64,000 nt of DNA, from contig JADJZR010000008.1 of the NCBI GenBank assembly GCA_016715645.1, forward strand, positions 48,241-112,240, written 5' to 3'. Position numbers and translations under genes: made by a program. This document shows, one piece after another, positions 2,251 to 54,765 of the stretch (the first letter of the stretch is position 1; each line of letters begins with the position of its first letter). Origin of the DNA: Elusimicrobiota bacterium (GTDB taxonomy: Bacteria; Elusimicrobiota; Elusimicrobia; FEN-1173). Below the pieces are notes generated by a model, which was given only the letters and a program-made list of their open reading frames with translations, ran no database searches and was not told the origin of the DNA.

Positions 2251-2612
2251 ATCGGGTTTCAAATTCAACACACCAATCCCCCTCCACCGCCCTGTTCGAA
2301 TCCCTGTCCGAATCGCGGATCTCTGTCCTTTATCTGGCCCGCCGGGCCAAAGAAACCAAGGACATGGCCCTGGCCAAAGAATTAACCGAAAAAGGTCAAT
2401 CGCTCAAAATTGAAATGGCCAGAATTCGCCGAACACTCACTGTCGAATGGACCAAAGAGGCCGCCGCCCTTCTGAAACGCTCAAAAACCGCCCAATCCGA
2501 ACTGGCCAAACATGTGGCGGACGCGGAAAAAAGCGCCCGGAAAACAAAGGCCCTCGCCCGGGCCCTAACCGCTGTGTCAAAGGTCCTTGCGCTCGCGAAA
2601 AAGGTTCTTTGA
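2247..2612 (+). CDS. Hypothetical small alpha-helical protein, paralog B of the duplicated pair
   Basis: About 50% amino-acid identity to ORF 1245..1718, with a near-identical ~70-nt 5' segment. Its stop overlaps the next start (TGATG). Confidence 0.5.
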   Translation: MNRVSNSTHQSPSTALFESLSESRISVLYLARRAKETKDMALAKELTEKGQSLKIEMARIRRTLTVEWTKEAAALLKRSKTAQSELAKHVADAEKSARKTKALARALTAVSKVLALAKKVL

Positions 2613-3838
2613 TGGAATCCACGGACTTTCTCATCGTCGGCGCCGGAATCGTGGGGCTGGCCGTAGCCAATGAGTTACGTCGACGCCACCCCAAAGCCAA
2701 CATCGTCGTTTTGGAAAAGGAAACGGAAGTGGGTTGCCACGCCAGTGGCCGAAACAGCGGGGTGTTGCACTCGGGTATTTACTATTCGCCGGGGACACTC
2801 AAGGCGAAATTTTGCGCGGAAGGCGCCCGCCGAATGTTGGCGTTCGCTAAAGAAAATGGTGTGGCCCATCGCGTGGCGGGGAAAGTGATTCTCGCTGTCG
2901 GACCGGAAGACCTCCCCGGACTGGAGCGGTTGGAACAAAACGCCAAAGCCAACGGGATTCGCGCCGTCCGTTTGTCCGCCCAAACACTCATGGAGATCGA
3001 ACCCCACGCTACGCCAGGAGAAGCGATCCATTGTTTGGACACCGCGGTGGTGGACGCCCCGGCCGTGGTGCAAGCGTTGGCCGAAAAAGTGGAATTAAGC
3101 GGAACTCGTTTTTTCTTTGGCGAAGAGGTGATCGAGGCAGAAGAAACCGCGGTAATAACGCGTTCTGGTCGAAAGTTGAAATTTGAAAAGATGATTAATT
3201 GTGCGGGCGCCCACGCGGATAAAGTGGCCAGGCTGTTCGGCCTGGCCAAGGATCATATTTTGGTTCCCTTCAAAGGGCTCTATTGGAAACTGCGTAATGG
3301 GGCCGACCATTGGGTTCGCGAAAGCATCTACCCTGTTCCGGACCTCAATTTTCCGTTTTTAGGCATTCACCTGACCCGCGGCGTGGGGGGCGACGTCTAC
3401 GTGGGCCCCACCGCCATTCCCGCTTTCGGAAGGGAAAATTATGGACTGCTGGAAGGAATCACCCCTGGCGAAAGCGCTCAAATAATGGGACGATTAACGA
3501 AAATGTATTTCCAAAAAGACCCCACGTTTCGACGACTGGTCAACCGTGAGATGGGTCATTACGTGAAAACCGGTTTTCTCAAAGCGGTTCAACGTTTGGT
3601 GCCCGCTCTTTCGGTGGAAGATCTGGTCCCATCGAACAAAGTCGGCATCCGCCCTCAACTGGTCCGCCGTACCGGTGAACTGGAAATGGATTTCCATATG
3701 GAACAGACCGACAATTCGTTGCATGTGTTGAACGCGATTTCACCGGCGTTCACCTGTTCCCTCGCCTTTGCCGAAAAAATCGTTGACGAGGTGGAGAGAC
3801 AAGGCGGTGAAGTCAAAGAAGAGGTCAAGGTCGCATGA
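2612..3838 (+). CDS. FAD-dependent oxidoreductase, L-2-hydroxyglutarate oxidase (LhgO/YgaF)-like
   Basis: ATG at 2612 (MESTDFLIVGAGIVGLAVANEL, an FAD-binding GxGxxG). CHASGRNSGVLHSGIYYSPGTLKAKFC closely matches the LhgO family. The upstream in-frame extension of ORF 2447 is probably not translated. Confidence 0.65.
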   Translation: MESTDFLIVGAGIVGLAVANELRRRHPKANIVVLEKETEVGCHASGRNSGVLHSGIYYSPGTLKAKFCAEGARRMLAFAKENGVAHRVAGKVILAVGPEDLPGLERLEQNAKANGIRAVRLSAQTLMEIEPHATPGEAIHCLDTAVVDAPAVVQALAEKVELSGTRFFFGEEVIEAEETAVITRSGRKLKFEKMINCAGAHADKVARLFGLAKDHILVPFKGLYWKLRNGADHWVRESIYPVPDLNFPFLGIHLTRGVGGDVYVGPTAIPAFGRENYGLLEGITPGESAQIMGRLTKMYFQKDPTFRRLVNREMGHYVKTGFLKAVQRLVPALSVEDLVPSNKVGIRPQLVRRTGELEMDFHMEQTDNSLHVLNAISPAFTCSLAFAEKIVDEVERQGGEVKEEVKVA

Positions 3839-4467
3839 GAAAAAATAAAAGGCCCGTTTGGAAAAACCCCACCGGTCGTCACGCCATGAGTTTCCTCGTG
3901 AACTTGGAAGAGATTGAAAAAGAGTTCCAGGTGACGAACAAACACAAAAAGCCGCTCTCGCTCGTGGACGGGTTTGCCCAAGCGATGGGCTTGATGGTGG
4001 ACGCCGCGCGCCGGAATAAGAAGCTCATTTTTGTGGGAAACGGGGGAAGCGCCGCGATTGCCAGTCACCAAGCCGTGGATTTTTGGAAGAACGGGGGAAT
4101 TAAAGCCCTGACGTTTAATGACGCAAGTCTTTTAACGTGCCTAGGGAATGACTGCGGTTATGAGAACGTTTTTTCCGAGCCGGTGCGCCGATTCGCCGAG
4201 TCGGGGGATGTGGTGTTGGCCATCAGCAGTTCGGGTCGTTCGCCCAATATTCTCAACGCCGTCACCGCAGCCCGTTCGGTGGGGAGCCGTGTTATTACTT
4301 TCTCAGGATTTACCGGTGACAATCCTCTTCGGAAAATGGGTGACGTGAACTTTTTCGTTCCCGTGCGGGCTTATGGGTTGGTGGAAGTCAGTCATCTCAT
4401 CCTGATCCATGCCATGTTGCGGGAAATCATCTACATCAATCCTCATGTGAAGAAATCGGGATATTGA
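3835..4467 (+). CDS. gmhA: SIS-domain sedoheptulose-7-phosphate isomerase (GmhA-like)
   Basis: Matches the GmhA/DiaA SIS family: KLIFVGNGGSAAIASHQAVDF, VVLAISSSGRSPNILNAV, ITFSGFTG. The ATGA overlaps the upstream stop; an alternative start is the Met at 3886. Confidence 0.65.
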   Translation: MRKNKRPVWKNPTGRHAMSFLVNLEEIEKEFQVTNKHKKPLSLVDGFAQAMGLMVDAARRNKKLIFVGNGGSAAIASHQAVDFWKNGGIKALTFNDASLLTCLGNDCGYENVFSEPVRRFAESGDVVLAISSSGRSPNILNAVTAARSVGSRVITFSGFTGDNPLRKMGDVNFFVPVRAYGLVEVSHLILIHAMLREIIYINPHVKKSGY

Positions 4468-5471
4468 GGAACAATGTGATAAAAAAAGCGGTCGTCACCG
4501 GCGGGTTGGGGTTTATCGGAAGCCACCTTGCGGAAGCTCTATTGGCTCGGGAGATTCAAACGACCATTGTTGACAACGCCTCCACCGGTCGACACGAAAA
4601 CATTCGCACGTTCGCGAACCACCCTCTCCTGACGGTCCTCCAGGCGGACGTGGCTTCTGACGATTTGGCGGGAGGGTTTGGCAACGCCGACGTTGTTTTT
4701 CACTTGGCCGGGTTGGCGGACATCGTTCCTTCGATCCAGCGTCCCATGGATTATTGCCGGACCAACATCACGGGAACGTTGCGTGTTTTGGAAGCGGCCC
4801 GGCAGGCCAAAGTCTCCCGTGTCGTCTATGCCGCCTCCTCGTCCTGCTATGGCCTCCCCGACATTTTTCCAACACCGGAGACCGCCCCCATCCGTCCCCA
4901 ATACCCCTACGCGCTCTCGAAGTGGATGGGCGAAGAGGCCGTGCATCATTGGGGGCGTGTCTACGGTCTAAAAACCACGTCGCTTCGACTTTTTAATGTG
5001 TACGGGCCCCGTTCCCGCACGACCGGAGCCTACGGCGCCGTTTTTGGTGTTTTTCTGGCCCAAAAGCTGGCAGAGAAACCGCTAACCATTGTTGGAGATG
5101 GAACCCAACAGCGAGATTTTATTTATGTCTCAGATGTGGTGGAGGCGTTCCTGGCCGCTGGAGAATCGACTTTGTCAAGGGAAGTTTTTAATGTGGCGGG
5201 GGGAAACCCGGTTGCGGTGAACACGCTGGCCGGTTTGGTGGGAGGTTCTCGGGTGGAAATTCCAAAACGTCCCGGAGAACCGGATGTGACGCACGGGGAC
5301 ATCACAAAAATTAAATCGGCCTTGGGCTGGGCGCCGCGCGTGTCGTTTGAGCAAGGGGTCGCCCGGGTCATGGCGCGTCTGGACGATTGGCGGAATGCCC
5401 CCGTGTGGACCCCCGCGTCGATAGCGGAAGCCACGGCGGATTGGTTTGCCCATTTGGGCAAGGGGAAATAA
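4464..5471 (+). CDS. NAD-dependent sugar epimerase/dehydratase (extended SDR)
   Basis: VVTGGLGFIGSHL Rossmann motif, YxxxK (YPYALSK), typical WcaG-like length. Confidence 0.75.
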   Translation: MRNNVIKKAVVTGGLGFIGSHLAEALLAREIQTTIVDNASTGRHENIRTFANHPLLTVLQADVASDDLAGGFGNADVVFHLAGLADIVPSIQRPMDYCRTNITGTLRVLEAARQAKVSRVVYAASSSCYGLPDIFPTPETAPIRPQYPYALSKWMGEEAVHHWGRVYGLKTTSLRLFNVYGPRSRTTGAYGAVFGVFLAQKLAEKPLTIVGDGTQQRDFIYVSDVVEAFLAAGESTLSREVFNVAGGNPVAVNTLAGLVGGSRVEIPKRPGEPDVTHGDITKIKSALGWAPRVSFEQGVARVMARLDDWRNAPVWTPASIAEATADWFAHLGKGK

Positions 5472-6994
5472 TGGACTCAAAAAAAATTATGGAGTTGGAT
5501 GCGTTGGCACTACAAGTTACGGACTGGAAACGGCAGGGCAAACGGGTGGTGCAGTGCCACGGCGTCTTTGACCTGTTGCACGTGGGGCATATTCGCCATT
5601 TAAATGAGGCCAAACGGTTCGGAGACTATTTAATCGTCACGCTGACCCCCGACCATCTCGTGAACAAAGGCCCCCATCGCCCTGCGTTTCCCCAACATCT
5701 CCGGGCAGAGGTGATGGCGGCTCTGGACGTGGTGGACGGTGTTGCGATCAATCGATGGCCCTCTGCGGTGGAATCCATCGGCCTTCTCAAACCAAACGTC
5801 TACGCCAAGGGGCCGGACTATCGAAAGGCGTCGGACGACGTCACGGGCGGAATTCTCCGGGAAGAAGAGGCCGTCCGCGCGGTGGGGGGCGAAATCCGTT
5901 TTACCGATGACGTGACGTTTAGTTCATCCAGCCTGGTCAATCTCCATTTAGATCTGCTTCCCCCGGAAGTCAAATCGTTCCTGGATGGTTTCCGTAAGAA
6001 ATACACAAAGGACGATATTTTCCGCTACATCGAAAGTCTTAAGGGTTTGCGGGTTGCGGTGGTGGGAGAAACCATTTTGGATGAGTATGTTTATTGTGAA
6101 GCCATGGGGAAATCTTCCAAAGAACCCACTTTGGCTGTACTTCGCCGGTCCCAGGAATTATTCGCGGGGGGGGCTTTGGCCATTGCCAACCATCTGGCGC
6201 AATTCTGCTCGGAAGTAGAGGTGATCACCTATTTGGGCGAACGGGATTCACAGGAAGAATTTGTCCGGAAAAGCCTGAATCCGCGCGTGCGGCTGACGGC
6301 CGTGAAAAAGCCGGGAGCCCCCACCATTGTCAAACGTCGCTACGTGGAGTCGTATCTTTTGTCAAAAATGTTTGAAGTCTATGATATGGACGACGAGGCC
6401 CTGACGGGCATTGCGGAAAATTCACTTTGCCAAGCAATGGAGTCTTCTTTTTCTAAAGTCGATGCGGTTCTTGTGGCCGATTATGGGCACGGTCTCATGA
6501 CGTCTAAGGCGGTGGCCCTGGCCTGTCAAAAGGCGCCTTTTCTGACGGTCAATACCCAGATCAACGCCGCCAACATCGGATTCCATGCCATTTCCCGCTA
6601 TCCCAAAGCGAACCATGTGTGTATCCAGGAATCTGAGCTGCGGTTGGAATACCGAAGTCGCCGGGGCCCCGTCAATGCCATGGTAACCGATCTGGAACGT
6701 CGTCTTGCGTGCGAGCGGATAACGGTGACCCGCGGCAGAGCGGGTATTCTGGTCCATGACCAGAAAGGTGATTTCCATCAATCTCCTGCCTTTGCCGTTA
6801 AGGTTTTGGATCGGATTGGGGCGGGAGACGCGGTTCTTGCGCTCACGTCCCTTTGCGCCGTGGCTGGCGTTCCGCCGGACGTTTCGGCGTTCCTGGGCAA
6901 TCTGGCGGGCGCCCAAGCGGTCACGATCATCGGCAACAAGACTTCCATTGATAAGGCGCTCCTTTTAAAAGCCGCCGAAGCCATGCTGAAATAA
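5471..6994 (+). CDS. hldE: Bifunctional heptose-7-phosphate kinase / heptose-1-phosphate nucleotidyltransferase (HldE/RfaE-like) with reversed domain order
   Basis: The N-terminus is a cytidylyltransferase-fold domain (VVQCHGVFDLLHVGHIRHLNEAKRFGDYLIVTLTPD, the RfaE domain-II signature). The C-terminus is a PfkB/ribokinase-like kinase (DRIGAGDAVLA). ATG at 5471 directly follows the upstream stop. Confidence 0.7.
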   Translation: MDSKKIMELDALALQVTDWKRQGKRVVQCHGVFDLLHVGHIRHLNEAKRFGDYLIVTLTPDHLVNKGPHRPAFPQHLRAEVMAALDVVDGVAINRWPSAVESIGLLKPNVYAKGPDYRKASDDVTGGILREEEAVRAVGGEIRFTDDVTFSSSSLVNLHLDLLPPEVKSFLDGFRKKYTKDDIFRYIESLKGLRVAVVGETILDEYVYCEAMGKSSKEPTLAVLRRSQELFAGGALAIANHLAQFCSEVEVITYLGERDSQEEFVRKSLNPRVRLTAVKKPGAPTIVKRRYVESYLLSKMFEVYDMDDEALTGIAENSLCQAMESSFSKVDAVLVADYGHGLMTSKAVALACQKAPFLTVNTQINAANIGFHAISRYPKANHVCIQESELRLEYRSRRGPVNAMVTDLERRLACERITVTRGRAGILVHDQKGDFHQSPAFAVKVLDRIGAGDAVLALTSLCAVAGVPPDVSAFLGNLAGAQAVTIIGNKTSIDKALLLKAAEAMLK

Positions 6995-7080
6995 GGAGCC
7001 CCTTTTTTTCCTTCCCCTCTTGGGGGAAGGTGCCCCAAAGGGTCGGATGAGGGGAGGAATTTTTTCTTTAAGGAGTTAAA

Positions 7081-8082
7081 ATGGTTCGATTCAAAAAAAT
7101 TTTGGTCACTGGTGGAGCTGGCTATGTTGGTTCGGCCCTTGTGCCGGCCCTGCTGAAAGTCGGCTACACCGTGCGCGCGCTGGACTTGTATTTGTACGGC
7201 GACCCCTTAAAAGACGTCGCAACGAACCCCCAACTCGAACAGGTGAAAGGCGACCTCCGGGACCAGGTTGTTTTAGACAAAGCCGTCCAGGGCTGTGACG
7301 CGGTGATTCACTTAGCGTGTGTTTCCAACGATCCCAGCTTTGAATTGGATCCCGCTCTCGGAAAGTCCATCAACTACGACGCTTTCTTCGGACTCATGAA
7401 GGCCGTGCGAAAAGCCAGGGTTCAGCGGTTGATCTATGCGTCCAGTTCCAGCGTGTATGGTTTGCGGGAAGAACCGGATGTGCGCGAGGAAACCCCCTGC
7501 ACTCCTTTGACAGATTACTCGAAGTACAAGCTGATGTGCGAAGACGCGTTGCGCGCCGACGGCCTGGGCGGAGCGGAATACGTCATTGTTCGACCAGCCA
7601 CGGTCTGCGGCTACGCCCCGCGCATGCGGTTGGACCTTTCCGTCAATATCCTCACCATCCATGCCCTGGTCAAAAAACAGATCACTGTGTTCGGTGGCAG
7701 TCAACTTCGCCCCAACATCAATATTCTGGACATGGTGGACGTCTACAAGCTTTTGTTAGAGGCCCCAAAAGAAAAAATTCAGGGGGACGTTTTTAACGCG
7801 GGGTATGAGAACCTTTCCCTCTCTCGTATCGCTGAGATGGTCAAAAACCAACTCCAAGACCCGACCATCACCATTAAAGTGGAACCCACCAACGATCTGC
7901 GTTCCTATCACGTGAACTCCGACAAAATCGCCCGAATCCTGGGTTTCCGCGCGCGCCATACTGTCGAACAGGCGATTGAAAGCATTCACAAGGCTTTTCA
8001 GGAAGGAAAATTCCAAGACCCTCTGACGAACCCTCTTTATTACAACATCAAAACCATGCAACAGGCGAAGCTCGGGGGCTAA
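7081..8082 (+). CDS. NAD-dependent sugar epimerase/dehydratase (extended SDR)
   Basis: ILVTGGAGYVGSAL, YASSSSVYG, YxxxK (YSKYK). Confidence 0.75.
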   Translation: MVRFKKILVTGGAGYVGSALVPALLKVGYTVRALDLYLYGDPLKDVATNPQLEQVKGDLRDQVVLDKAVQGCDAVIHLACVSNDPSFELDPALGKSINYDAFFGLMKAVRKARVQRLIYASSSSVYGLREEPDVREETPCTPLTDYSKYKLMCEDALRADGLGGAEYVIVRPATVCGYAPRMRLDLSVNILTIHALVKKQITVFGGSQLRPNINILDMVDVYKLLLEAPKEKIQGDVFNAGYENLSLSRIAEMVKNQLQDPTITIKVEPTNDLRSYHVNSDKIARILGFRARHTVEQAIESIHKAFQEGKFQDPLTNPLYYNIKTMQQAKLGG

Positions 8083-8954
8083 TGGCATCTCCGGTTGACA
8101 TCGAAGCGTTGGATCTTAAGGCCTTGGCCCGGACCATCCGAGGCGACGTCATCGATATGTCCCACCGGGCAGAAACAGCCCATCTGGGGGGATCCCTTTC
8201 GGTGGTGGATATTTTGGTGGCGGCGTACTGGGGAGTTCTTTCTTTAGACCCGAAGGACCCCCTCGCCCCCGATCGGGATCTATTTATCTTTAGCAAGGGC
8301 CACGCCATCAGCGCTTTCTATTCTACGCTGGCCCACCGGGGTTTTTTCCCGATCCCCCTGCTGGAAACGTTTGCCGTTTCCGGTGGATCTCTTCCCGAAC
8401 ACCCCAGTCCTTCGTGTGTCCCCGGCCTAGAGTTCGCCACAGGGTCCCTCGGCCATGGGTTACCCGTTGGCCTTGGGATGGCCTGGGCCGCCCGGCGGCA
8501 GGGTCGTCTTTCGCGCGTGTTCGTCGTGATTAGCGACGGAGAAGCCAACGAGGGGTCCGTCTGGGAAGCCGCCCTTCTGGCGCCCGCCCAAAAGCTCGGC
8601 AACCTGGCGGTCATTGTCGATTACAACAAATGGCAAGCCACGGGCCGTAGCCACGAAGTGATGGCCCTTAATCCCCTAAAAGAAAAATGGCAATCCTTCG
8701 GCTGGAACGCGGTGGAGGTGGACGGACACGACATTCCCGCTCTGGTCGACGCTCTGAACAAACATCCCTATCATTCCTCCCAACCGTTGGCGATCGTGGC
8801 CCACACGGTGAAGGGGAAAGGTGTTTCTTTCATGGAAGATGACAACAACTGGCATTACCGCATTCCCACTGCCGATGAGGTCCGCCGGGACCGAGCGTTT
8901 TGTCCAGGAGGCCGAAAATTTGTGGAACTCGGGCCCTGGGCCAACCGGGGGTGA
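8082..8954 (+). CDS. Transketolase, N-terminal (ThDP/pyrophosphate-binding) subunit
   Basis: GHLGGSLSVVDILVAAYW, ISDGEANEGSVWEA and the GDG-like ThDP motif. Split form of about 290 aa. Confidence 0.8.
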   Translation: MASPVDIEALDLKALARTIRGDVIDMSHRAETAHLGGSLSVVDILVAAYWGVLSLDPKDPLAPDRDLFIFSKGHAISAFYSTLAHRGFFPIPLLETFAVSGGSLPEHPSPSCVPGLEFATGSLGHGLPVGLGMAWAARRQGRLSRVFVVISDGEANEGSVWEAALLAPAQKLGNLAVIVDYNKWQATGRSHEVMALNPLKEKWQSFGWNAVEVDGHDIPALVDALNKHPYHSSQPLAIVAHTVKGKGVSFMEDDNNWHYRIPTADEVRRDRAFCPGGRKFVELGPWANRG

Positions 8955-9880
8955 GAAATGCTTTCGCAAGTGAAATAACGGCGCTCGCTAAAAAGGACGA
9001 GCGGGTCGTCCTGGTGTCCGGCGATATCGGGAACCGGTTGTTTGACGAGTTCAAAATCGCAGCGCCCGGCCGGTTCGTCAACGCCGGCGCCGCCGAAGGA
9101 AACATGATCGGTTTGGCGGCCGGGATGGCTTTAAGCGGACTGCGCCCGGTCGTCTACACCATAAACTCATTTCTTACAACGCGCTGCTATGAGCAGATTC
9201 GCGTCGATCTATGCTACCACAACCTACCCGTGGTCCTAGCGGGAGTGGGCGCTGGACTGAGTTACGCGTCCTTGGGGGCCACCCACCATTCTCTGGAAGA
9301 CGTGGCGGCTCTTCGGGTCCTCCCCCGCATGGCGGTGGTTTGTCCAGGCGATCCGTTGGAGGTCCGTCTGGCGTTGCGCGCGGCTCTCCAACAGGAGGGC
9401 CCCGTCTTCATTCGAATGGGCAAAAAAGGGGAACCTCCGGTCCATGTCGAGCCACCCCCTTTTGCCATCGGCCGTGCCATTGTCGTCAAACCGGGAAACA
9501 GAATCTGCTTGCTTGGCAACGGGCACATCCTTTCAATGGTCATGAAAGCGGCCGACATTTTAGAGCAAAAGGGCGTCTCAACCCAAGTTGTCAGTTTTCA
9601 CACCGTAAAACCATTGGACAAAGAATTCCTTCAAGACGCATTCAAGCGGTTTCAGTTGGTGGCGACGGTGGAGGATCACGGCGTCCTGGGGGGCTTGGGG
9701 GGAAGCGTGGCGGAATGGTTGGCGGATCACCCTTCCCCGGCTCGCCTATGCCGGATCGGTACCCCCGACGAATTTTTGATGGAGACCATCGACAACGAAT
9801 CCGCTCGGCATCGGTGTGGCCTCACCCCCGACTCTGTGGCGGCCAAGGCGCTCGCGGCCCTGGCCCCCGAAACGGTTTAA
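8951..9880 (+). CDS. Transketolase, C-terminal (pyrimidine-binding) subunit
   Basis: GTG at 8951 overlaps the upstream stop (GTGA). VRNAFASEITALAKKDERVVLVSGDIG... is a typical split-transketolase C-subunit. Confidence 0.75.
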   Translation: MRNAFASEITALAKKDERVVLVSGDIGNRLFDEFKIAAPGRFVNAGAAEGNMIGLAAGMALSGLRPVVYTINSFLTTRCYEQIRVDLCYHNLPVVLAGVGAGLSYASLGATHHSLEDVAALRVLPRMAVVCPGDPLEVRLALRAALQQEGPVFIRMGKKGEPPVHVEPPPFAIGRAIVVKPGNRICLLGNGHILSMVMKAADILEQKGVSTQVVSFHTVKPLDKEFLQDAFKRFQLVATVEDHGVLGGLGGSVAEWLADHPSPARLCRIGTPDEFLMETIDNESARHRCGLTPDSVAAKALAALAPETV

Positions 9881-10486: not shown

Positions 10487-10487
10487 A

Positions 10488-12183: not shown

Positions 12184-12186
12184 CCT

Positions 12187-12261
12187 ATGAAATTCAACGT
12201 CGCCGTCCTTGTCGAGAGCAGGGAGCCTAATGTCATCAAAGATTTTGAGAAACCACGATGA
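12187..12261 (+). pseudogene. 24-codon remnant of an MDR alcohol-dehydrogenase N-terminus (MKFNVAVLVESREPNVIKDFEKPR*)
   Basis: Close match to the N-terminus of the intact dehydrogenase at 13843 (MKFKAAVLVESRNPLVIEELE). It is terminated by TGA, which overlaps the ATG of the next gene. Confidence 0.5.
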
Positions 12262-13712: not shown

Positions 13713-13715
13713 GCA

Positions 13716-46551: not shown

Positions 46552-47636
46552 TCCTTCGCGATATTCGCATTGGAAATCAATCCATCGGCGAAAACCATAT
46601 CCCCTGGATTGTGGCAGAAATGTCAGCCAACCACGGGCAATCGCTTGAACACGCTCTTAGCATTGTTGACGCAGCCGCAAAAGCCGGCGTTCAGGCTCTC
46701 AAACTCCAAACGTACAAAGCAGAGACGATGACATTGGATCTCTCCACCTCGGATTTTATGATTGAAGATCCTGGTAACATATGGAAAGGTCAATCTTTGT
46801 ATAACCTTTATCAAATGGCGCACTGTCCTTGGGAATGGCATGAGCCTATTTTCCGTCGGTGTCGTGCGCTTGGTCTGGTGGGTTTTAGTACTCCATTTGA
46901 TGTAACCGCCGTCGACTTTTTAGAAGATTTGGGGGTTCCTATGTATAAGGTGGCGTCTTTTGAGAACAACGATCTCCCATTAATACGAAAAATTGGAAAA
47001 ACCGGAAAACCCCTTATGTTGTCAACAGGAATGGCCACCCTGAACGAATTGGAGGAGGCTGTTTCGGCCGCCCGTGAAGCTGGTTGTGAAGACATTGTCC
47101 TCTTGAAATGTACCAGCGCATACCCCGCCCCAGCTGAGGAGGCCAACTTGGCGACCATTCCGGATCTGAAAGAAAGGTTTCAATGCCTCGTGGGGATTTC
47201 GGATCATTCGAATGGGATCGGGATTTCTATGGCCAGCGTGGCGCTCGGTGCTCGGGTCATTGAAAGACATTTCATCGACTCCCGTCTGAGCGGAGGACCG
47301 GACGCATCGTTTTCTCTTGAGCCAATGGAAATGCAACAATTGGTCGAAGAGTCCCAAAAAATTTTTTTGGCGCAGGGGAAAGTTTTTTATGGATCTACCC
47401 ACACCGAAATGAAATCCGCAAGGTATCGACGTTCCCTGTATATCACGGAACCCCTTAAAAAGGGCGATCGCTTGACACCCTATAACCTGAGATCTATACG
47501 TCCAGGCATGGGGCTTGCGCCAAAATATCTTGAAAAAGTTCTCGACCTCCCAGTCGAACGGGATGTGAGTAAGGGCACTCCTCTAACATGGGATATCGTT
47601 GGCGGAAAACCTCCTTCTATGAAAGGGGAGGCTTAA
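46548..47636 (+). CDS. pseI: Pseudaminic acid synthase (NeuB/PseI family, with C-terminal SAF domain)
   Basis: IGENHIPWIVAEMSANHGQSLEHALSIVDAAAKAGVQALKLQTY...GFSTPFD...KVASFENNDLPLI matches the NeuB family. It is assigned to Pse because of the flanking pseBCGH genes. Confidence 0.8.
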   Translation: MILRDIRIGNQSIGENHIPWIVAEMSANHGQSLEHALSIVDAAAKAGVQALKLQTYKAETMTLDLSTSDFMIEDPGNIWKGQSLYNLYQMAHCPWEWHEPIFRRCRALGLVGFSTPFDVTAVDFLEDLGVPMYKVASFENNDLPLIRKIGKTGKPLMLSTGMATLNELEEAVSAAREAGCEDIVLLKCTSAYPAPAEEANLATIPDLKERFQCLVGISDHSNGIGISMASVALGARVIERHFIDSRLSGGPDASFSLEPMEMQQLVEESQKIFLAQGKVFYGSTHTEMKSARYRRSLYITEPLKKGDRLTPYNLRSIRPGMGLAPKYLEKVLDLPVERDVSKGTPLTWDIVGGKPPSMKGEA

Positions 47637-47639
47637 TCC

Positions 47640-48710
47640 ATGGAGTTGATTGACTTGTCCCGTTATGCAACCATTCGTTCACCCGCAATCATTCCACCGT
47701 TTTCTTCTCTTCGGAATTCTGATTCCATCTCATTCACCCCAAATTTGGAGTTAGTGGAGACACCTGAAAATCTACATCGTGTGGACCAACTGATAAAAGC
47801 AGGTTGGCGCGTGGCTCGCGTGCATCGCATTCCGCCCGACACCCCGTTCCCTTTTCGAAAAACATTCCCCCGCCGAATTCTTTTCGAAATGACAAGCAAT
47901 TGCAACTACAGGTGTCGTATGTGTCCTCAAAACAATCTCACTCGTCCCCGAATCCATATGGAGGGGGATCTGTATCGAAGGGGTTTAGATGAAATTGATG
48001 TTCATGGTGTTGAGGGATTGTGGCTCTACCATCTCGGCGAATCTATTTTACATCCCGAATTTCGAGAAATACTCCAATACGTTAGCAGTAAGAAACATTT
48101 AGGCACAGTTTGGATGAGCACCAATGGGCGATATTTTGACGAACAAATGGCACGTTTTGTCATGGAATCTTCGGTCGATTATGTCAACTTCTCTGCCCAT
48201 GGGGTGACTCAATCTGCCTATGAAAGCGTCATCCCCGGTGGGGCTTTTGAGATTGTCCAAAGAAACCTTGAAGCGTTCTATAGGCTCAAAGGATCCCCTC
48301 GAATCAAACGAAAACCATTCATCCATACACAAATGATCGAGCAGGAATCAACCCAGGGCGAAGTGGATTCATTTATCGCACAGCACATCGATCGAGCCGA
48401 CCTAGTGAGCATAAACATGCTGGAATACGTCAATCTTCCCAAAAATCAATTTGGAATCCAACAGAGGGATCGTCCCCCTTTGCGTTCCTGTTTGCGAGTA
48501 GAACGAAACGATTGCTTCATTTGTTCTAACGGCAGCGTTACTCTTTGTGACGCCGCCTACAACGGAGAAATTTTCTTAGGGGACATCCATACTCAGACCA
48601 TTGAAGAGATTTGGAACGGGGAAAAAAGGAAAGAAATCTTGGAACTGAGTCGCTCCGGGCGTATGGGCGAAATCGAATTTTGCCGTCACTGCACCGATTA
48701 CGACATTTGA
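47640..48710 (+). CDS. Radical SAM enzyme with C-terminal SPASM/twitch-like Cys cluster
   Basis: CNYRCRMC (CxxxCxxC) in FEMTSNCNYRCRMCPQN, and a C-terminal CFICSNGS...CDAAY...CRHC. Confidence 0.7.
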   Translation: MELIDLSRYATIRSPAIIPPFSSLRNSDSISFTPNLELVETPENLHRVDQLIKAGWRVARVHRIPPDTPFPFRKTFPRRILFEMTSNCNYRCRMCPQNNLTRPRIHMEGDLYRRGLDEIDVHGVEGLWLYHLGESILHPEFREILQYVSSKKHLGTVWMSTNGRYFDEQMARFVMESSVDYVNFSAHGVTQSAYESVIPGGAFEIVQRNLEAFYRLKGSPRIKRKPFIHTQMIEQESTQGEVDSFIAQHIDRADLVSINMLEYVNLPKNQFGIQQRDRPPLRSCLRVERNDCFICSNGSVTLCDAAYNGEIFLGDIHTQTIEEIWNGEKRKEILELSRSGRMGEIEFCRHCTDYDI

Positions 48711-48816
48711 ATGTTACTTTTTGGTGATGATTCTAGTCCGGGATCCAGAAATAACATTGGGGGAACAAGGGTAAAAGAATAACGGAAGGTGGTTGCCGGA
48801 CGACTGAGATGATCCC

Positions 48817-49689
48817 ATGGAGAAAGAAATTATGACGGATGACATTAAATCATTGTATCTTGGACTTTTGAAAAAATCCCTCACCTTCAATATATGGCCG
48901 GAACCGCTGGTTCCTGTATCCTTTTTTAATTCCGGTCGGTCGTGGTTGATCCGTTGCCTCTTCGCGACTGCAACTAAATTGTTAGGCCCGTGGGGCCTGG
49001 TGCTTGCCCGGCAGTACGGTCATCATTCGGTAGACCTTGCGGAAGGGAAAAGTTTTGCGCTCTTTGCGGACACGATGGTTGGACTTAAACGCCTTGACAA
49101 TCTTCAAACTTGCCTAGAGACTGTGTTGCGGGAAGGGATTCCAGGCGAAATGATAGAAACGGGGGTTTGGAGAGGTGGAGCGTGTATATTTATGCGGGGC
49201 GTTTTAGCCGCGCATGGAGTAACGGATCGGAAGGTTTTTGTAGCCGATTCGTTTGAAGGGCTTCCTAAACCAGACGTCGACCTGTTCCCTGAGGATAAGG
49301 GAGATCGCCATTCCCGATGGCGGTTCTTAGCGGTTTCGCTGGAGGAAGTCAAAAATAATTTTCTACGGTATGGGCTTTTAGATGATCAAGTTGTATTCGT
49401 TAAAGGGTTTTTCCACGACTCCCTTCCTCATGCGCCGATTGGAAGTCTCTCCGTTCTTCGGTTGGACGGAGATATGTACGGATCTACAATGGACGTGCTT
49501 GAAAATCTCTATAAAAAACTTAACCCGGGGGGATTTTGTATCATTGACGATTATGCGCTTCCAGGCTGTCGCAAGGCAGTGAACGATTTTAGGGAAAAAC
49601 ATGGGATTTGTGAACCTATGATAGAAATTGATTGGACCGGTTGTTATTGGCGCAAGGGAGAGGCTGTTTGCAAAGGGCAGCTGACTTGA
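48817..49689 (+). CDS. TylF/MycF-family sugar O-methyltransferase
   Basis: The LRLDGDMYGST...GGFCIIDDY metal-binding motifs are characteristic of macrocin-O-methyltransferase-like enzymes. Confidence 0.7.
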   Translation: MEKEIMTDDIKSLYLGLLKKSLTFNIWPEPLVPVSFFNSGRSWLIRCLFATATKLLGPWGLVLARQYGHHSVDLAEGKSFALFADTMVGLKRLDNLQTCLETVLREGIPGEMIETGVWRGGACIFMRGVLAAHGVTDRKVFVADSFEGLPKPDVDLFPEDKGDRHSRWRFLAVSLEEVKNNFLRYGLLDDQVVFVKGFFHDSLPHAPIGSLSVLRLDGDMYGSTMDVLENLYKKLNPGGFCIIDDYALPGCRKAVNDFREKHGICEPMIEIDWTGCYWRKGEAVCKGQLT

Positions 49690-49805
49690 TGCTGGAACAG
49701 TTTGCGAAGAATGATCGGGTAAGGAAGAGAGGGTTGTTTTTTCCATTAGTTTATAGGCGAGTGCCATCACCTATGACCCGTTGGATTTGCTAGAGGGCGA
49801 CCTCC

Positions 49806-50690
49806 ATGTGGTCAATGAAGGAACTTCTCAAAAGTGGATTTGAAAGGATGGGGTTGTTAGGGGCATTGCGAAAGGTAAAACGTCGGAGCCTTGTCTGGGC
49901 CGACCATTTGATTCATGGCCCCCTCTTTAAGAAAAGGCTAGCGGATGTGGTCGGAGATCGGGCAGCGATCCTCGATATTGGTTTTGGTCATTATGAGACG
50001 ATGGCGAAACCTTATTTGGCAGCCCGGGCTAAATCATATGTGGGGGTCGATTCAAACCCGGAATATGTCGCGAATGCCAAAGCGGCAATCGATTTGGGTT
50101 TCTTACCAGACAAGTGCCAATTCATTAACCGGCCAATCGAGGAATGTGCTTTTCCTGAACAGTCCTTCGATGTCATTTTTTCAAGCTCAGCTCTGGTGCT
50201 TATTCCCACTTACGCAGAGGTTATTCGGAATTGTGCGAATTGGATAAGTCCACAGGGGCGCCTTATCCTTTGTCTTGGAGCGCGCCACCCATCTAAGAAG
50301 AACAATGCCATACTGAGGGCCGCTTTCCGGTGTCTCCACCCATTCGCGAAACCGGCCGAGGTGCTGGAAGGAGTTAATGGCTGGCTGGACTGGAATCGCA
50401 AGGGCGCACGCGATGGTCAGTTTGGACACCTGCCTGGAAAGCGTATGATCCAAGAAGATGCGATCTTGACCGAAGTGGAGAAGTTCTTTTTCCTTTCGGA
50501 TTCATTCGGTTGTCGTCCCTTCATTGATATTATCACTAAAGACCTTAACGAACTGAGGCTCCTAGGCGCTGTCCTCGTGAAACCCATTGATTTTATTTTG
50601 AATATTACCGGGCTAATGGACCCAACCTACTTCACCTATGTGTTTCGACCTAAATTACCTAAGCCTGCCCATACGATTCCCTTTCCATGA
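49806..50690 (+). CDS. Class I SAM-dependent methyltransferase
   Basis: ILDIGFGHYE motif I; DVIFSSSALV. Confidence 0.5.
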   Translation: MWSMKELLKSGFERMGLLGALRKVKRRSLVWADHLIHGPLFKKRLADVVGDRAAILDIGFGHYETMAKPYLAARAKSYVGVDSNPEYVANAKAAIDLGFLPDKCQFINRPIEECAFPEQSFDVIFSSSALVLIPTYAEVIRNCANWISPQGRLILCLGARHPSKKNNAILRAAFRCLHPFAKPAEVLEGVNGWLDWNRKGARDGQFGHLPGKRMIQEDAILTEVEKFFFLSDSFGCRPFIDIITKDLNELRLLGAVLVKPIDFILNITGLMDPTYFTYVFRPKLPKPAHTIPFP

Positions 50691-50831: not shown

Positions 50832-52676
50832 TTGGACCTCTATTTTGCATTCGATATTGATGCGCTGAAGAACTTCCGCCATTGTGCCAACCCAACCCGT
50901 GTTCGTTTCTTTGGAGGGCAATGGTCGGTGTTGGATTACCTCCAACAGAGTGGGCTCCCGTTAGTTGATGAGGGCAATCTTCTGGATGTGGACACGGCAT
51001 GCACCCTCAATAAATTTGCCCATGCCTGAGTTAGAGACTGGTACATTGACCTGGAAGGAAATGATTTTACATTGTTCCGCGGAATTTCTCTGGGAAAACT
51101 TTTTGAGACTCTCTTGGGTGTGCACCATTTTGTCCAACTCTACAAATTTGATCTGATCGGCCGCGTCTTAATTACCCGAGAGTGTCCTTCGGTTGTCTGG
51201 ACGGATCGAGGTTGTCCAGAACTTTTAACATTAATTTTGGACCAGATTCAGAGTGAGTCACGACCAAGGTTCATTTTATCTCAGCAGGAGGGGGCGGGCC
51301 CAAGCACAAGGGCCATGCCAGTTAAGGGCCATCGTACGCTCAAAATTTTTACTTCCCATAGAGTTAAGAATGTTGTGGAAAGCATCTTCCACAAGGTCTA
51401 TAACTACGGCGTAGGAATCCTGAAATTTATTCAGCCCCGTATTCAACGACGGGTGATGGTTTCTTATTTCCATACGCTGTCCGGGTTGTTTGAGGCTTTG
51501 TTGTCTCCGCGCTGGCGTAAAGAATTTCACGTGACGCTTATTCAGAGGCCTGGGAAAAAAATAGTAGGTCGGTGTTTTCGAACCGGCTGGCCCATCTTGC
51601 AGTCCGATGTTTCGGGAGAAATAGCCAATTGCCCGCCGGCGCTAACCGTGGTCGATAAGACTCGCCTCCGCGAAATTCGGTCCCGTTGGGAGGAACTCAA
51701 TAAATCGTTAGACTACCGTCAGCGATTTATTTTTCGGGAAAAACCGCCCTGGAAAGCATTGGAAAATGTATTGGAAGAAGAGTTTTTCGAGCGATTGGAT
51801 CACACGGCCAATTGGCTGGCTTTCCTTGAAAATTATTTCACAAGGAATCGGTTGGGCGCGGTCATTCTCGCCGACGATTCCTTGCCAGTCTCTTTGTCAG
51901 TCGTTGTCGTCGCACGACGTTTTGGCGTTCCCAGTTTTGTTGTCCTTCATGGTTTGCTCAGTGACAATCAAAATCAAGGCATGCTCTATGGTGCTGGCGC
52001 AGACCACGTGGCTGTGTCCGGACCTGAAATCCGTTCGCAATTCGACGTTTCATCCAAGGGGGGGGAAAGGGTCTTAGTTAATAGTAGCCCTCTCTTCGAT
52101 CGATATGCGGCTCGGCAACATTCGTTTTCTCCTTCTACGGGTTTGGTTCGGCGTGTTTTGGCGCTGACCCATCCCTTCGACTTTGGCAACACACTCTCTT
52201 GTGTCGGTGATTCAGAGAGACATGTGTTGACGGTTGCGCGTTTATTGTCTGGGTTCCAAGAGGTAACAGGGACGATTAAGCTGCATCCCTCGGAGAATTT
52301 GGACTATTACCTGAAATTGATGAAGGGATTTCCGGGGATCAAGGTGGTTAAAAAAGGGGACATTGATAGATTCATCCTTGCCCACGATTTTGTTCTGGCC
52401 ACAACATCAACGGTATTGTTACAGGCAGCTTTGCTGGGGAGGAGAATTGTCTATGTTAACTTTTCGCGAGCAAATTACGATGATCCATTCAGAGAGGGAT
52501 GGGGGTTCCCTGTCGCTCGGACTCCAAGCGATTTGGAGAAAATTCTTCGGCGGGAGTTCTCTTCGGATCCTGGTCCCGCGCCGGATTACTCCGCTCTCAT
52601 TCAGGGTTTTGCTGGAAGAATCGATGGGGACGGCGCTAGACGATTTCTCGAAAAAGTGCGAAGCACTGTTCAATGA
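50832..52676 (+). CDS. GT-B-like hypothetical protein (putative glycosyl/pseudaminyl transferase) interrupted by one in-frame TGA at 51027-51029; alternatively a shorter gene starting at TTG 51072
   Basis: ORFs 50832..51029 and 51072..52676 share a frame and are separated only by the TGA. The C-terminal region (ILAHDFVLATTSTVLLQAALLGRRIVYVN) resembles a GT-B C-domain. Confidence 0.4.
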
Positions 52677-53716
52677 CTGACTTCAAGCGATTGCGGGTCG
52701 GGTATGTCCCCTACAGTCAATCCTTGGACTCCCCGGGGGACCGTCGCCGGTTCGTTTTCTATGCTGGACGGCGAGGGATTCCGTTTGAAGTAGCGGACCC
52801 ATCGAAGAAATATGATGTTGTCGTGGCGAGCGGGAACGCGGACCTGAGCCTGTGGACCCGTTACCAAGGATCGCCACTATTTTTCGATTACATCGATTCT
52901 TATTTCGCTGTTCCCTGTTTGAGCGTTCGTGGTCTTTTGCGCGGGGTGGCTCATTTTTCAACGGGTCGCAGCCGATGGCTTCAGTTGATCCATCGAAAAT
53001 CCCTGGAACGAATGTTCCAGAGGGCCGATGCGGTCATATGCGCCACCACCGAACAACGTCAACAGGTCCTGCCATATTGCCGAAATGTCCACGCCATTCT
53101 GGATTCCCATGCCCTCTATCATTCCACTAAGACCGATTACTCCGCGGGAGATATTTTCCGTCTTGTATGGGAGGGACAACCTCAGAATGTGGAACATTTT
53201 GGAGTGATCGCCCGCGCCTTGAAATCGGTGGGAAAAGATCAAAAACTGGAATTGAATCTCGTGACAAACCCTCGGTATTTTCGTTTTCTGGGGAAGGTTT
53301 GGCCCCGAGACACCATGAGAGTCGCGCGTTCTTTCTTTAATTCGATCCACTTCCATCATTGGGATGAAATAACTTCTCCGTCCTTCATGACATCCTGCGA
53401 TATGGCTGTGATCCCCCTTCCTCTGGATGACCCCTTTAACGCAGGGAAACCCGAGAACAAACTTCTCATTTTTTGGAAGATGGGAATCCCGGCAATAGTG
53501 TCAGCCACTCCGGCCTATTCCCGAGCGATGAAGGCCGCAGGGTTGTCCATGGACTGTCGGACGACGGAAGAGTGGATTATTGCTTTGGAAAAATTCATTA
53601 AAAATGGAGAGCTTCGCCGTCAAGCAGGTATTCAAGGGAAGGCCTTTGTCGAAACCCATCACAATGATGAAATTCTTGTAACCCAATGGGACGCTCTTTT
53701 CTCCTCAATATTATGA
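52673..53716 (+). CDS. Hypothetical GT-B-like protein, paralog 1 of a tandem pair (candidate glycosyltransferase)
   Basis: About 35-40% identity to the next ORF over the full length. The C-terminal LIFWKMGIPAIVSATPAYSRAM resembles the GT-B donor-binding region. Confidence 0.35.
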   Translation: MTDFKRLRVGYVPYSQSLDSPGDRRRFVFYAGRRGIPFEVADPSKKYDVVVASGNADLSLWTRYQGSPLFFDYIDSYFAVPCLSVRGLLRGVAHFSTGRSRWLQLIHRKSLERMFQRADAVICATTEQRQQVLPYCRNVHAILDSHALYHSTKTDYSAGDIFRLVWEGQPQNVEHFGVIARALKSVGKDQKLELNLVTNPRYFRFLGKVWPRDTMRVARSFFNSIHFHHWDEITSPSFMTSCDMAVIPLPLDDPFNAGKPENKLLIFWKMGIPAIVSATPAYSRAMKAAGLSMDCRTTEEWIIALEKFIKNGELRRQAGIQGKAFVETHHNDEILVTQWDALFSSIL

Positions 53717-54765
53717 AGAATATTTCCCACCCTCTTCTGTTAGGATATGTTCCCTATGATTCCTCCCTGACCCATCCGGCGGATCGTCGTCGCTTTTGTC
53801 GCTATGCCCAACGGAAAGGGCTCACCTTTGAAATCGCTGACCCGAAGAAAGCCTATGATGTGGTGATCGTATCGGAAGGCGGTGACTTAAGTGTTTGGAG
53901 CCGCTATAGGAAAGGGAAAGTTATTTTCGATATGGTGAACGCCTACCTCGACGTTCCTTTAACAGAGATCAAGGGCCTGTTCCGTGGGGTGGCCAAGTAT
54001 GTGACGGGCCAATGCCAGCGTTTGACGGTGAGTTACTGGAAGGCGGTTCAAGAGATGTGTGGTCATGCAGGGGCCGTCGTTTGCGGTTCTCCTGAGCAAG
54101 CCGATCGAATTCGTTCTTTCCAGGCGAACGTCCACCCCATATTGGATTATCATGGGATGTACGATAAAGTGAAAGAAAACTACGAGTCAGGAAGTCCGTT
54201 TCGGTTGGTCTGGGAAGGACTTCCTCATAATGTGGAGTTTTTTAGTGAAATTCGCAAGGCGCTCCTCTCTTTGCATCAAAAATTTCCTCTGTCGTTGCAT
54301 GTCATCACCGCGCCTCAATCGAAGAAATATTTGCGAAAGTTTTGGACCGTCGAAACAAAAGACATCCTCCCATCTTTCCCATTTCCCACCGTCCTTCACC
54401 CCTGGGATGAACGAACCGTTTCCGATATCATTCGTTCCTGCGATCTTGCCCTGATCCCACTCCCTGCGGGGAGCCCGTTCAATACGCTCAAGCCCGAAAA
54501 CAAACTGTTGATATTTTGGCGAATGGGGATGCCCACCGTCACCTCCGCCATTCCGTCTTACGTCCGGGTCATGGGTGAAGCGGGCCTGTCCATGTTTTGC
54601 CGGAGCAGTGAGCAGTGGCAACAGACCCTGGAGAAATTTATCATCAGCACCTCCGCCCGTTCGGCAGCCGGGGAAAAAGGGAAGAGGTATTTGGAAAGTC
54701 ATTGTGGTGAAGCCGGATGGCTGGAAAAATGGGACGCGGTCTTTGAATCCATCGGAAAGGTATAG
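53713..54765 (+). CDS. Hypothetical GT-B-like protein, paralog 2 of the tandem pair
   Basis: ATGA overlap start at 53713 (MKNISHPLLLGYVPYD), collinear with paralog 1 (LLIFWRMGMPTVTSAIPSYVRVM). Confidence 0.35.
   Translation: MKNISHPLLLGYVPYDSSLTHPADRRRFCRYAQRKGLTFEIADPKKAYDVVIVSEGGDLSVWSRYRKGKVIFDMVNAYLDVPLTEIKGLFRGVAKYVTGQCQRLTVSYWKAVQEMCGHAGAVVCGSPEQADRIRSFQANVHPILDYHGMYDKVKENYESGSPFRLVWEGLPHNVEFFSEIRKALLSLHQKFPLSLHVITAPQSKKYLRKFWTVETKDILPSFPFPTVLHPWDERTVSDIIRSCDLALIPLPAGSPFNTLKPENKLLIFWRMGMPTVTSAIPSYVRVMGEAGLSMFCRSSEQWQQTLEKFIISTSARSAAGEKGKRYLESHCGEAGWLEKWDAVFESIGKV

Follow-up and report, generated by a model that had tools for sequence, protein, structure and literature searches.

Gene content and extent of the locus

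The subject of this study is a 64,000-nucleotide stretch of contig JADJZR010000008.1 from an uncultured Elusimicrobia bacterium (assembly GCA_016715645.1; the whole stretch is called the window below), and within it the run of genes between positions 2612 and 54765, which an earlier note, made from the sequence alone, had described as a composite glycan island. In homology searches, three proteins of the island gave 100% identical matches in an Elusimicrobia metagenome assembly (locus tags IPN19_, on a contig of 180 kb). Families were assigned by Pfam and NCBIfam profile searches with every long open reading frame (ORF) of the 64-kb window, using the NCBIfam equivalog cut-offs, and start codons were corrected to the first start near the upstream stop before genes and overlaps were counted. 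By these searches, in which nearly every gene call of the earlier note held, the segment is a genuine large modular envelope-glycan locus, a normal kind of locus with some unstudied sugar chemistry.

The proposed boundaries were exact: the first gene opens with the ATG at 2612 and the last one closes at 54765. With corrected starts this interval holds 50 plus-strand genes, fewer than the roughly 55 consecutive genes claimed, and the start/stop overlaps that had been pointed out are real (17 of four bases and four of one base among neighbouring genes). All nine proposed methyltransferase (MT) genes, at 11521, 14925, 26000, 26699, 32672, 34908, 44336, 48817 and 49806, encode an S-adenosylmethionine (SAM)-MT domain, and the radical-SAM enzyme, the MBL hydrolase, the class-III aminotransferase and the AKR were found as called. 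The picture of a large glycan locus with several pathways and numerous methyl- and acyltransferases is thus supported. The partition into three pathways had to be revised: what had been taken for the first two routes is a single conserved cassette, and two further modules had gone unrecognised. The revised arrangement is as follows:

2612..17606, plus strand, module 1, conserved rare-sugar cassette (Pfam/NCBIfam and recurrence in relatives)
17603..19408, plus strand, single-polypeptide ABC exporter of the HepA/MsbA/PglK type (ABC_membrane and ABC_tran)
20752..26016, plus strand, module 2, Arn/Gtr-like periplasmic decoration set (Pfam/NCBIfam and one context homologue)
26000..35603, plus strand, module 3, predicted N-acylated and methylated 4-amino-4,6-dideoxyhexose set (Pfam/NCBIfam)
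35628..50690, plus strand, module 4, TIGR04372 glycosyltransferase (GT) and decorated pseudaminic acid (Pse) block (Pfam/NCBIfam and recurrence)
51072..54765, plus strand, module 5, three soluble GT candidates (weak profiles; structure model and Foldseek)

The single orientation of the genes had been presented as a trait of the island. The flanks share this orientation: 61 of the 63 genes of the window lie on the plus strand and the GC skew is positive or near zero throughout, so the orientation is not an island signature. Nor is the run uninterrupted, being broken by a minus-strand IS4-family element and by one non-glycan gene (12258-13712). The GC content passes from 0.52-0.59 at 2-16 kb, values like those of the flanks, to 0.44-0.51 at 16-54 kb. 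Scans of the window for island-border marks found no tRNA, no Rfam family and no long repeat, and the signals of promoter and terminator scans were at background level or accounted for by T-rich coding sequence.

The left cassette and its relatives

The genes of module 1 (start position, strand, product) are:

2612, plus, DAO-type FAD oxidoreductase
3835, plus, GmhA-like SIS protein
4464, plus, SDR (first)
5471 (true start), plus, nucleotidyltransferase-PfkB kinase fusion of 507 amino acids
7081, plus, SDR (second)
8082, second half from about 8951, plus, split transketolase
9881, plus, HAD phosphatase with a DFDNT (DxDxT) motif
10488, plus, APH-like kinase
11521, plus, MT (SAM-MT domain)
13843, plus, MDR dehydrogenase
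14925, plus, 3-C-methyltransferase (PF08421, PF13489 and PF08484)
16135, plus, WbuC cupin
about 16677, plus, RmlD-like reductase

The conservation of this set was studied by tblastn and by reading four gene neighbourhoods around homologues of the fusion gene, all of which were found to carry the cassette. In L024, from a closely related Elusimicrobia metagenome-assembled genome (MAG), eleven genes from DAO to MDR are collinear with the window at 66-89% amino acid identity, and the 3-C-MT gene lies just downstream. In L027, from a distant Elusimicrobia MAG, the set is kept from the first SDR gene through to that for the MDR dehydrogenase at 35-67% identity, the MDR gene follows directly after the transketolase, and a WbuC-like protein and a 3-C-MT are encoded a few genes on. 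A single L027 protein (15321-16898, 525 amino acids) joins the HAD phosphatase to the APH-like kinase, which speaks for a role of the two enzymes in the same pathway. A shorter core, consisting of SDR-fusion-SDR and a pair of genes for a thiamine diphosphate (ThDP) enzyme, is present in L029 (a contig labelled Deltaproteobacteria) together with APH, MT and MDR genes, and in L030 (an Omnitrophota MAG) together with SIS and DAO genes; in L030 an E1 alpha/beta pair fills the transketolase slot together with the DAO gene. The ThDP enzyme pair thus occurs in all four contexts, and the APH-like kinase, MT and MDR genes in three, as does the DAO gene. Judged by gene order, the heptose-like and the C-methyl-sugar genes form one cassette, not two routes.

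The fusion enzyme has 4274 relatives at E <= 1e-10, found in Elusimicrobia, Nitrospira, Omnitrophota, Chloroflexota and Deltaproteobacteria-labelled MAGs, and its domain order is shared by the best 120 of these 4274. Cassette homologues adjoin Wzm/Wzt or Wzx genes, which points to a surface, lipid-linked polysaccharide. The DAO gene at 2612 scores 380 bits on the L-2-hydroxyglutarate oxidase model (cut-off 299); it was assigned to the cassette because it recurs there in relatives.

Chemistry suggested for the cassette

The earlier note had read the first part of the cassette as a nucleoside diphosphate (NDP)-heptose route. The enzyme types of such a route are present, but the matches are at paralogue level and all below the equivalog cut-offs: 93 bits against 209 for the GmhA-like SIS protein, 125 against 345 for the kinase domain of the fusion (HldE kinase model), 98 against 181.5 for its nucleotidyltransferase domain, and 109 against 275 for the SDR on the heptose epimerase (HldD) model. 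The HldE domain order is also reversed, the nucleotidyltransferase (residues 44-182) preceding the kinase (215-519). The logic of heptose activation is thus present, yet the scores are too low to assign the genes to the heptose pathway.

The separate C-methylated deoxysugar route fared similarly. The C-MT, the WbuC cupin and the RmlD-like reductase were confirmed by profiles; they are not separate from the heptose-like genes. The C-MT at 14925 has the Zn-binding N-terminal, SAM-MT and C-terminal C-MT domains of a TylC3-like enzyme, and it aligns over its full length (residues 4-393) to MtmC (4rv9, E = 3e-28), TcaB9 and KijD1. Enzymes of the 3-C-MT family require an NDP-4-keto sugar, and since the relatives of the C-MT act on such sugars, a keto-deoxy intermediate is implied.

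Active-site residues of the split transketolase were read from a low-identity alignment with E. coli TktA, which included the orthologues from the window, L024, L027 and L029. The ThDP-binding and catalytic residues H26, H66, H100, D155, N185, E411 and H473 are retained, as is R358. Each of the four cassette orthologues has Leu in place of D469 and Lys in place of R520, and lacks S385, so that the canonical transketolase set (R358, S385, H461, D469 and R520 in E. coli) is incomplete. In TktA, Asp469 binds the C2 hydroxyl of the acceptor. It has been described that E1 alpha/beta enzymes place C2 branches on deoxy-keto sugars, and split-gene transketolases have been proposed, as yet without proof and for Streptomyces clusters only, to move a hydroxyacetyl group onto a keto sugar (PMC12247030). 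Taking into account these branching enzymes, the loss of Asp469 and the E1 pair in the transketolase slot of L030, branching or extension is favoured over precursor supply: the split transketolase may branch or chain-extend a keto-sugar rather than provide sedoheptulose-7-phosphate. A literature search for a link between transketolase, heptose and O-antigen clusters found nothing direct.

The pseudaminic acid block

Module 4 contains the following genes:

35628, plus, TIGR04372 glycosyltransferase (236 bits, cut-off 45)
36875, plus, PseC
38044, plus, PseB
39039, plus, AKR
about 39953, plus, KdsB/SpsF-like cytidylyltransferase (CTP_transf_3)
40734, plus, class-III aminotransferase
42031, plus, PseG
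43098, plus, PseH-like GNAT
about 43619, plus, WbqC
44336, plus, MT
45256, plus, MBL-fold protein
46548, plus, PseI
47640, plus, radical-SAM/SPASM enzyme
48817, plus, TylF-type O-MT (324 bits)
49806, plus, MT

A complete PseBCHGI route with a cytidylyltransferase had been claimed. PseB (TIGR03589, 497.1 bits against a cut-off of 407.75), PseG (TIGR03590, 210.2 against 153.55) and PseI (TIGR03586, 453.8 against 340.25) pass, and the score of PseI on the NeuB model is lower (285.9 against 399.65). The claim needs qualification for the other three: PseC, a full-length top match, falls 1.8 bits short (TIGR03588, 421.7 against 423.5), PseH has TIGR03585 as its best yet weak match (42.1 against 93.1; the GNAT fold was confirmed), and the cytidylyltransferase is not PseF (TIGR03584, 28.6 against 205.7). 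The latter protein scores about 68 bits on KdsB and has 6oew as its best solved relative, and it is plausible that a KdsB/SpsF-like enzyme stands in for PseF here.

The accessory genes of the block are not a local oddity, because they are collinear in other metagenome contigs. In two of these (L033 and L035) the genes for PseB, PseC, AKR, cytidylyltransferase, class-III aminotransferase, PseG, PseH, WbqC, MT, PseI and the radical-SAM enzyme are in the same order, with 35-75% amino acid identity; the MBL gene is absent. An MBL-fold gene adjoins the radical-SAM gene in a partial block (L041; 54% and 49% identity), and two other partial blocks (L038 and L039) have AKR, cytidylyltransferase, PseI, MT and radical-SAM genes. 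The trio of AKR, cytidylyltransferase and class-III aminotransferase flanks PseI also in Ignavibacteriae, Pelagibacteraceae and Neomarinimicrobiota contigs (L003, L013 and L022), and a PseI scan over species-representative genomes, a set that does not include the source genome, gave a best match of 60% identity. Since both modules checked elsewhere, this block and the left cassette, recur, the implied uniqueness of the island is not upheld at the level of gene content; the description of the locus as larger and more decorated than typical is correct in comparison with ordinary O-antigen clusters.

Among solved structures the radical-SAM enzyme has a single relative, the auxiliary-cluster domain of BtrN, a sugar dehydrogenase. 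For WbqC and the MBL-fold protein sequence searches found no informative solved relatives, and our literature searches found no functional study of WbqC and nothing direct on pseudaminic acid in Elusimicrobia. PtmG is presumably a WbqC-family protein. In Campylobacter and Legionella, CMP-Leg5Ac7Ac is turned into its acetamidino form and then into the N-methyl-acetimidoyl form by PtmG together with PtmH, a methyltransferase (PMC3766260). By analogy, the conserved WbqC and MT pair may correspond to PtmG/PtmH.

Modules 2 and 3

The genes of module 2 are:

20752, plus, DegT aminotransferase
21864, plus, NeuD/PglB/VioB-family acyltransferase
22564-24426, plus, GT-C-like membrane protein of 620 amino acids
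24398, plus, WbqC-family protein
about 25090, plus, polyprenyl-phosphate GT2, PgfS/ArnC-like (best NCBIfam matches PgfS and ArnC)

The GT2 has two C-terminal membrane helices. The 620-amino-acid protein has about 11-12 hydrophobic segments, with a WDDW motif after the first, and matches by sequence no Pfam or NCBIfam family and no structure in the PDB. A word-indexed search had returned three relatives, as if the protein were an orphan; this was overturned by a full profile search, which found a family of 2189 representatives, typically of 500-530 amino acids. The WDDW motif is 89-99% conserved among 151 family members (D43 99%, D44 92%). Invariant-like positions of the family are WDDW, SF..S, R399, D455 and E499. 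A homologue in another contig (L031) is encoded in the order GT2-GtrA-homologue-DegT, and this Gtr/Arn arrangement makes the label "GT-C-like", given in the earlier note, a reasonable one. The label is thus borne out by topology, by the acidic first-loop motif and by the Gtr/Arn-like context, but not by the fold, an AlphaFold model built with three sequences having a pLDDT of only 42.8. On sequence grounds, the family is a candidate for the definition of a new GT-C-type family.

Module 3 consists of the following genes:

26000 and 26699, plus, two MTs
27673, plus, GH130/GH43-like propeller (GH130 match weak)
about 28641, plus, VioB-family acyltransferase (second)
about 29314, plus, carrier protein
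29543, plus, FabG-like reductase
30285, plus, GNAT
31010, plus, DltA-like adenylating ligase
32672, plus, MT
33749, plus, WecE-type transaminase
34908, plus, MT

The WecE assignment is firm (579 bits against a cut-off of 375), and the ligase at 31010 scores 291.5 bits on the amino-acid adenylation model (cut-off 317) and 288 bits on DltA. Judged by their families, the genes fit the synthesis of an N-acylated, methylated 4-amino-4,6-dideoxyhexose.

Glycosyltransferases and export

The first of the three GT candidates of module 5, a protein of 534 amino acids, has no informative solved relatives by sequence, and its C-terminus matches TIGR04396 (38 bits) and the BFO_1060 family (24.5 bits, cut-off 200) weakly, below cut-off in both cases. 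BFO_1060 is a candidate legionaminic-acid transferase of Tannerella, encoded directly after the CMP-sugar locus of that organism (PMC5420450). The other two are tandem paralogues of 347 and 359 amino acids, which belong to a family of 719 homologues, some of them with PF13692; the pair is kept in another contig (L032, 71% and 71% identity). An AlphaFold model of a tandem paralogue had a pLDDT of 93.4, and its best Foldseek matches were GT4 enzymes with TM values of 0.6-0.67. These two proteins are predicted from the model to be GT4-like candidates with GT-B fold.

The MsbA-like exporter of the earlier note was confirmed as an ABC exporter. It has 7-8 hydrophobic segments, and its NCBIfam scores (HepA 428, MsbA 347, PglK 227) are all below the cut-offs. 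It is a likely flippase for a lipid-linked glycan.

Insertion sequence, variable slot and flanks

Two features interrupt the glycan genes:

12258..13712, plus strand, AlbA_2 and HATPase_c_4 (Schlafen) protein, non-glycan (Pfam)
19424..20739, minus strand, IS4-family element of 1316 bp (transposase, inverted repeats and target duplication)

The insertion sequence (IS) lies in what was an 18-bp spacer between the stop of the ABC exporter gene (19408) and the probable ATG of the aminotransferase gene (20752). Its transposase (19437-20636, minus strand; DUF4372 and DDE_Tnp_1), its intact 18-nt terminal inverted repeats (19424-19441 and 20722-20739) and the perfect 9-bp target duplication ACAAAGGCC at 19415-19423 and 20740-20748 are together the hallmarks of the IS4 family: a DDE transposase, inverted repeats and a target-site duplication. 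Because the duplication is perfect, the two flanks must have been contiguous before the insertion, which looks recent. A minus-strand ORF of 418 codons (19426-20682) was discarded as a mere shadow of the transposase frame, having a third-position GC content of 0.40 and no family match.

The slot of the AlbA_2 gene is variable, since L024 has a DUF1016/YhcG nuclease gene there. A tandem repeat of 10/21 nt (13709-13762) follows the gene. In the left flank of the window, an AlbA_2/HATPase_c_4-type gene (73-1248) is accompanied by a fragment of a DUF1016 nuclease gene (1729-2250) and by two small ORFs, at 1245-1718 and 2247-2612, which are paralogues with some 340 nt in common (77-84% identity); in L024 DUF1016/YhcG genes and a 127-amino-acid ORF are found at places matching these units. 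These genes may represent a mobile or defence-like two-gene unit that has landed repeatedly in and beside the cassette.

Directly past the island, at 55406-57924, there are adjacent DDE_Tnp_1 (329 amino acids) and DDE_Tnp_1_4 (511 amino acids) transposase genes, for which no clear terminal repeats were found; the GC skew over 56-58 kb is unusually high (0.33). A Phd/YefM antitoxin and a PIN toxin are encoded at 58276-58982, immediately downstream of a perfect sigma-70 consensus (TTGACA-17-TATAAT; 58214-58242). A minus-strand AAA_14/DUF4143 ATPase gene followed by plus-strand DUF2397 and DUF2398 genes occupies 60186-63710, the latter two being the start of a conserved multi-gene system that runs past the end of the window.

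Interpretation

We interpret the segment as a modular surface-glycan super-locus, which would supply four or more activated rare sugars, tailor them and contribute some of the machinery for assembly, and assign this reading a probability of roughly 0.7. In the envisaged scheme the SIS isomerase, the kinase, the HAD phosphatase and the nucleotidyltransferase of the cassette would act in turn to yield a nucleotide-activated higher-carbon sugar. An SDR would convert it to a keto-deoxy intermediate, which would be 3-C-methylated and probably C2-branched by the split transketolase, then reduced, O-methylated and perhaps phosphorylated. In the Arn/Gtr-like set, an N-acylated amino sugar would be loaded onto polyprenyl phosphate by the GT2, and the GT-C-like protein would transfer the sugar from there at the outer face of the cytoplasmic membrane. 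The WecE-type route would supply a 4-amino-4,6-dideoxyhexose, N-acylated from a carrier-protein-bound acid that the DltA-like ligase activates. PseB, PseC, PseH, PseG, PseI and the KdsB/SpsF-like cytidylyltransferase would make a CMP-pseudaminic acid, to be modified by WbqC and its MT, the MBL-fold protein, the radical-SAM enzyme and the TylF-type O-MT. Finally, the four soluble GT candidates (the TIGR04372 GT, the GT with weak likeness to nonulosonic-acid transferases and the two GT4-like proteins) and the MsbA/PglK-type exporter would assemble and flip a lipid-linked glycan. Observed in the data are the gene families, the recurrence of modules in other genomes and contigs, the IS insertion and the lineage of the source; the substrates, the step order, the part played by the transketolase and the acceptor are inferred.

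Several observations weigh against this reading. The heptose-type enzymes are well below their cut-offs, and the starting ketose phosphate may not be sedoheptulose-7-phosphate; RmlA and RmlB, which a dTDP route would need, are absent from the window; and the DAO gene, with its score above the cut-off for L-2-hydroxyglutarate oxidase, might serve a housekeeping function. The poor model of the 620-amino-acid protein leaves its GT-C fold unconfirmed. The window has no initiating phosphoglycosyltransferase, Wzx/Wzy/Wzz, Wzm/Wzt, ligase or oligosaccharyltransferase, so that the assembly route and the acceptor are unproven. The IS may be polar and could silence the downstream genes over 34 kb, and the junctions between modules 1, 2, 3 and 4 were seen in no second genome.

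The acceptor is where the best of the alternatives differs. Were the locus an island for protein O-glycosylation, of the kind that serves flagellin, pilin or an S-layer, a surface protein would receive the Pse derivative along with the other sugars. It is from such glycans that Pse is best known, the best match of the GT2, PgfS, belongs to a protein-glycosylation system, and a PglK-like exporter would be compatible with block transfer to protein. However, no Maf/DUF115, flagellin, pilin, PglB, PglL or S-layer gene, and no Wzy or WaaL gene, was found among the ORFs scanned over 64 kb, and the cassette homologues adjoin the polysaccharide exporters Wzm/Wzt and Wzx. The 534-amino-acid protein, too, recalls a protein-glycan system by its weak likeness to the nonulosonic-acid transferase of Tannerella, whose gene directly trails the CMP-sugar locus (PMC5420450), but a score of 24.5 bits is far from the cut-off of 200. 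We therefore regard protein glycosylation as unlikely, and a lipid-linked polysaccharide or lipopolysaccharide (LPS) as a more likely acceptor than protein.

A natural-product-type cluster, whose sugars would decorate a secreted small molecule, is much less probable still. It would account for the TylC3-like C-MT, the TylF-like O-MT, the split transketolase, the carrier protein and the adenylating ligase. The solved structures nearest to the C-MT (MtmC, TcaB9 and KijD1) belong to antibiotic pathways, TylF is a macrolide-sugar O-MT family, and a branching role has so far been proposed for split transketolases in Streptomyces clusters only. The core that such a molecule would need is missing, there being no polyketide synthase, nonribosomal peptide synthetase condensation domain, terpene or aminoglycoside core gene, whereas the polyprenyl-phosphate GT2, the GT-C-like protein, the Pse pathway and the PglK/MsbA-type exporter are hallmarks of envelope glycans, and homologous cassettes stand in polysaccharide export contexts.

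That the modules were brought together only by mis-assembly or wrong binning of a metagenome is hardly credible: the contig is from a MAG, with a fall in GC content at about 16 kb and with IS elements at 19.4-20.7 kb and 55.4-57.9 kb, and the unseen module junctions speak for it as well, but the change in GC is internal to the conserved cassette (L024 keeps the MDR-then-C-MT order, and a WbuC-like gene is present in L027 as well), 21 start/stop overlaps tie neighbouring genes together, and the locus tags IPN19_06515 to IPN19_06670 span 31 tag positions, matching the about 30 genes counted between them. Synteny in relatives, which the earlier note had named as the check for chimerism, gives the same answer, the left cassette being collinear in L024 and the Pse block in independent contigs; a small residual doubt comes from the module junctions, which lack a counterpart in a second genome.

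To our knowledge, nothing is known experimentally about the envelope glycans of Elusimicrobia, and the surface-glycan super-locus described here offers a concrete parts list for them. Its most interesting leads are two recurrent, uncharacterised sets that can be tested in vitro: the heptose-like cassette with the split transketolase or E1 pair, and the radical-SAM/MBL/WbqC/methyltransferase set tied to PseI. Either could bring new rare-sugar reactions and building blocks for glycoengineering. As a tentative proposal, which we hold to be less probable than the general reading, the left cassette would be a widespread set whose split transketolase branches or extends a nucleotide-linked keto-sugar to give a new class of branched higher-carbon sugars for the envelope of Elusimicrobia, Omnitrophota and uncultured lineages related to them, and the WbqC/MT/MBL/radical-SAM set would likewise yield a new pseudaminic-acid derivative.

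Comparison with known systems

The cassette resembles the ADP-/GDP-glycero-manno-heptose pathway (GmhA, HldE or HddA/HddC, GmhB, HldD) in bringing together the five kinds of enzyme found there (SIS isomerase, PfkB kinase, cytidylyltransferase-like nucleotidyltransferase, HAD phosphatase and SDR). It differs from it by the addition of the ThDP enzyme pair and, in most cases, of an APH-like kinase, an MT, an MDR and a DAO. With the ThDP sugar-branching enzymes (the split transketolases proposed for miharamycin and amipurimycin, and E1 alpha/beta or alpha-KADH2 enzymes such as that of kibdelomycin) it shares a split transketolase within a keto-sugar cassette, the E1 alpha/beta replacement in L030 and the loss of the acceptor-binding Asp469. 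Those branching candidates are all from Streptomyces secondary metabolism, whereas the genes described here stand in an envelope-glycan context in Elusimicrobia, Omnitrophota and Deltaproteobacteria-labelled MAGs.

Module 2 is similar to the Arn (ArnB/ArnC/ArnT) and Gtr (GtrA/GtrB/GtrC) systems in combining a DegT aminotransferase, an ArnC/PgfS-like GT2 and a multi-pass protein with an acidic first-loop motif. In contrast to these systems, the window has no GtrA or ArnE/F flippase, and the 620-amino-acid protein matches no Pfam or NCBIfam family. Module 4 shares PseB, PseG and PseI, a borderline PseC and the clustering of tailoring genes with the loci for Campylobacter and Helicobacter flagellin, Legionella LPS and the Tannerella O-glycan. 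It deviates from them in its KdsB/SpsF-like cytidylyltransferase, its PseH below the cut-off and the lack of a Maf transferase, and has in addition conserved radical-SAM/SPASM, MBL-fold, AKR and class-III aminotransferase genes without a characterised role.

As a whole, the island is comparable to other large same-strand loci. The flagellar glycosylation locus of Campylobacter likewise has tens of co-oriented, tightly packed genes for sugar synthesis and transfer, nonulosonic-acid genes among them, and the rfb locus of Leptospira is another large same-strand locus with tens of packed sugar genes. The locus described here differs from both in the phylum in which it is found and in the set of modules of which it is composed.

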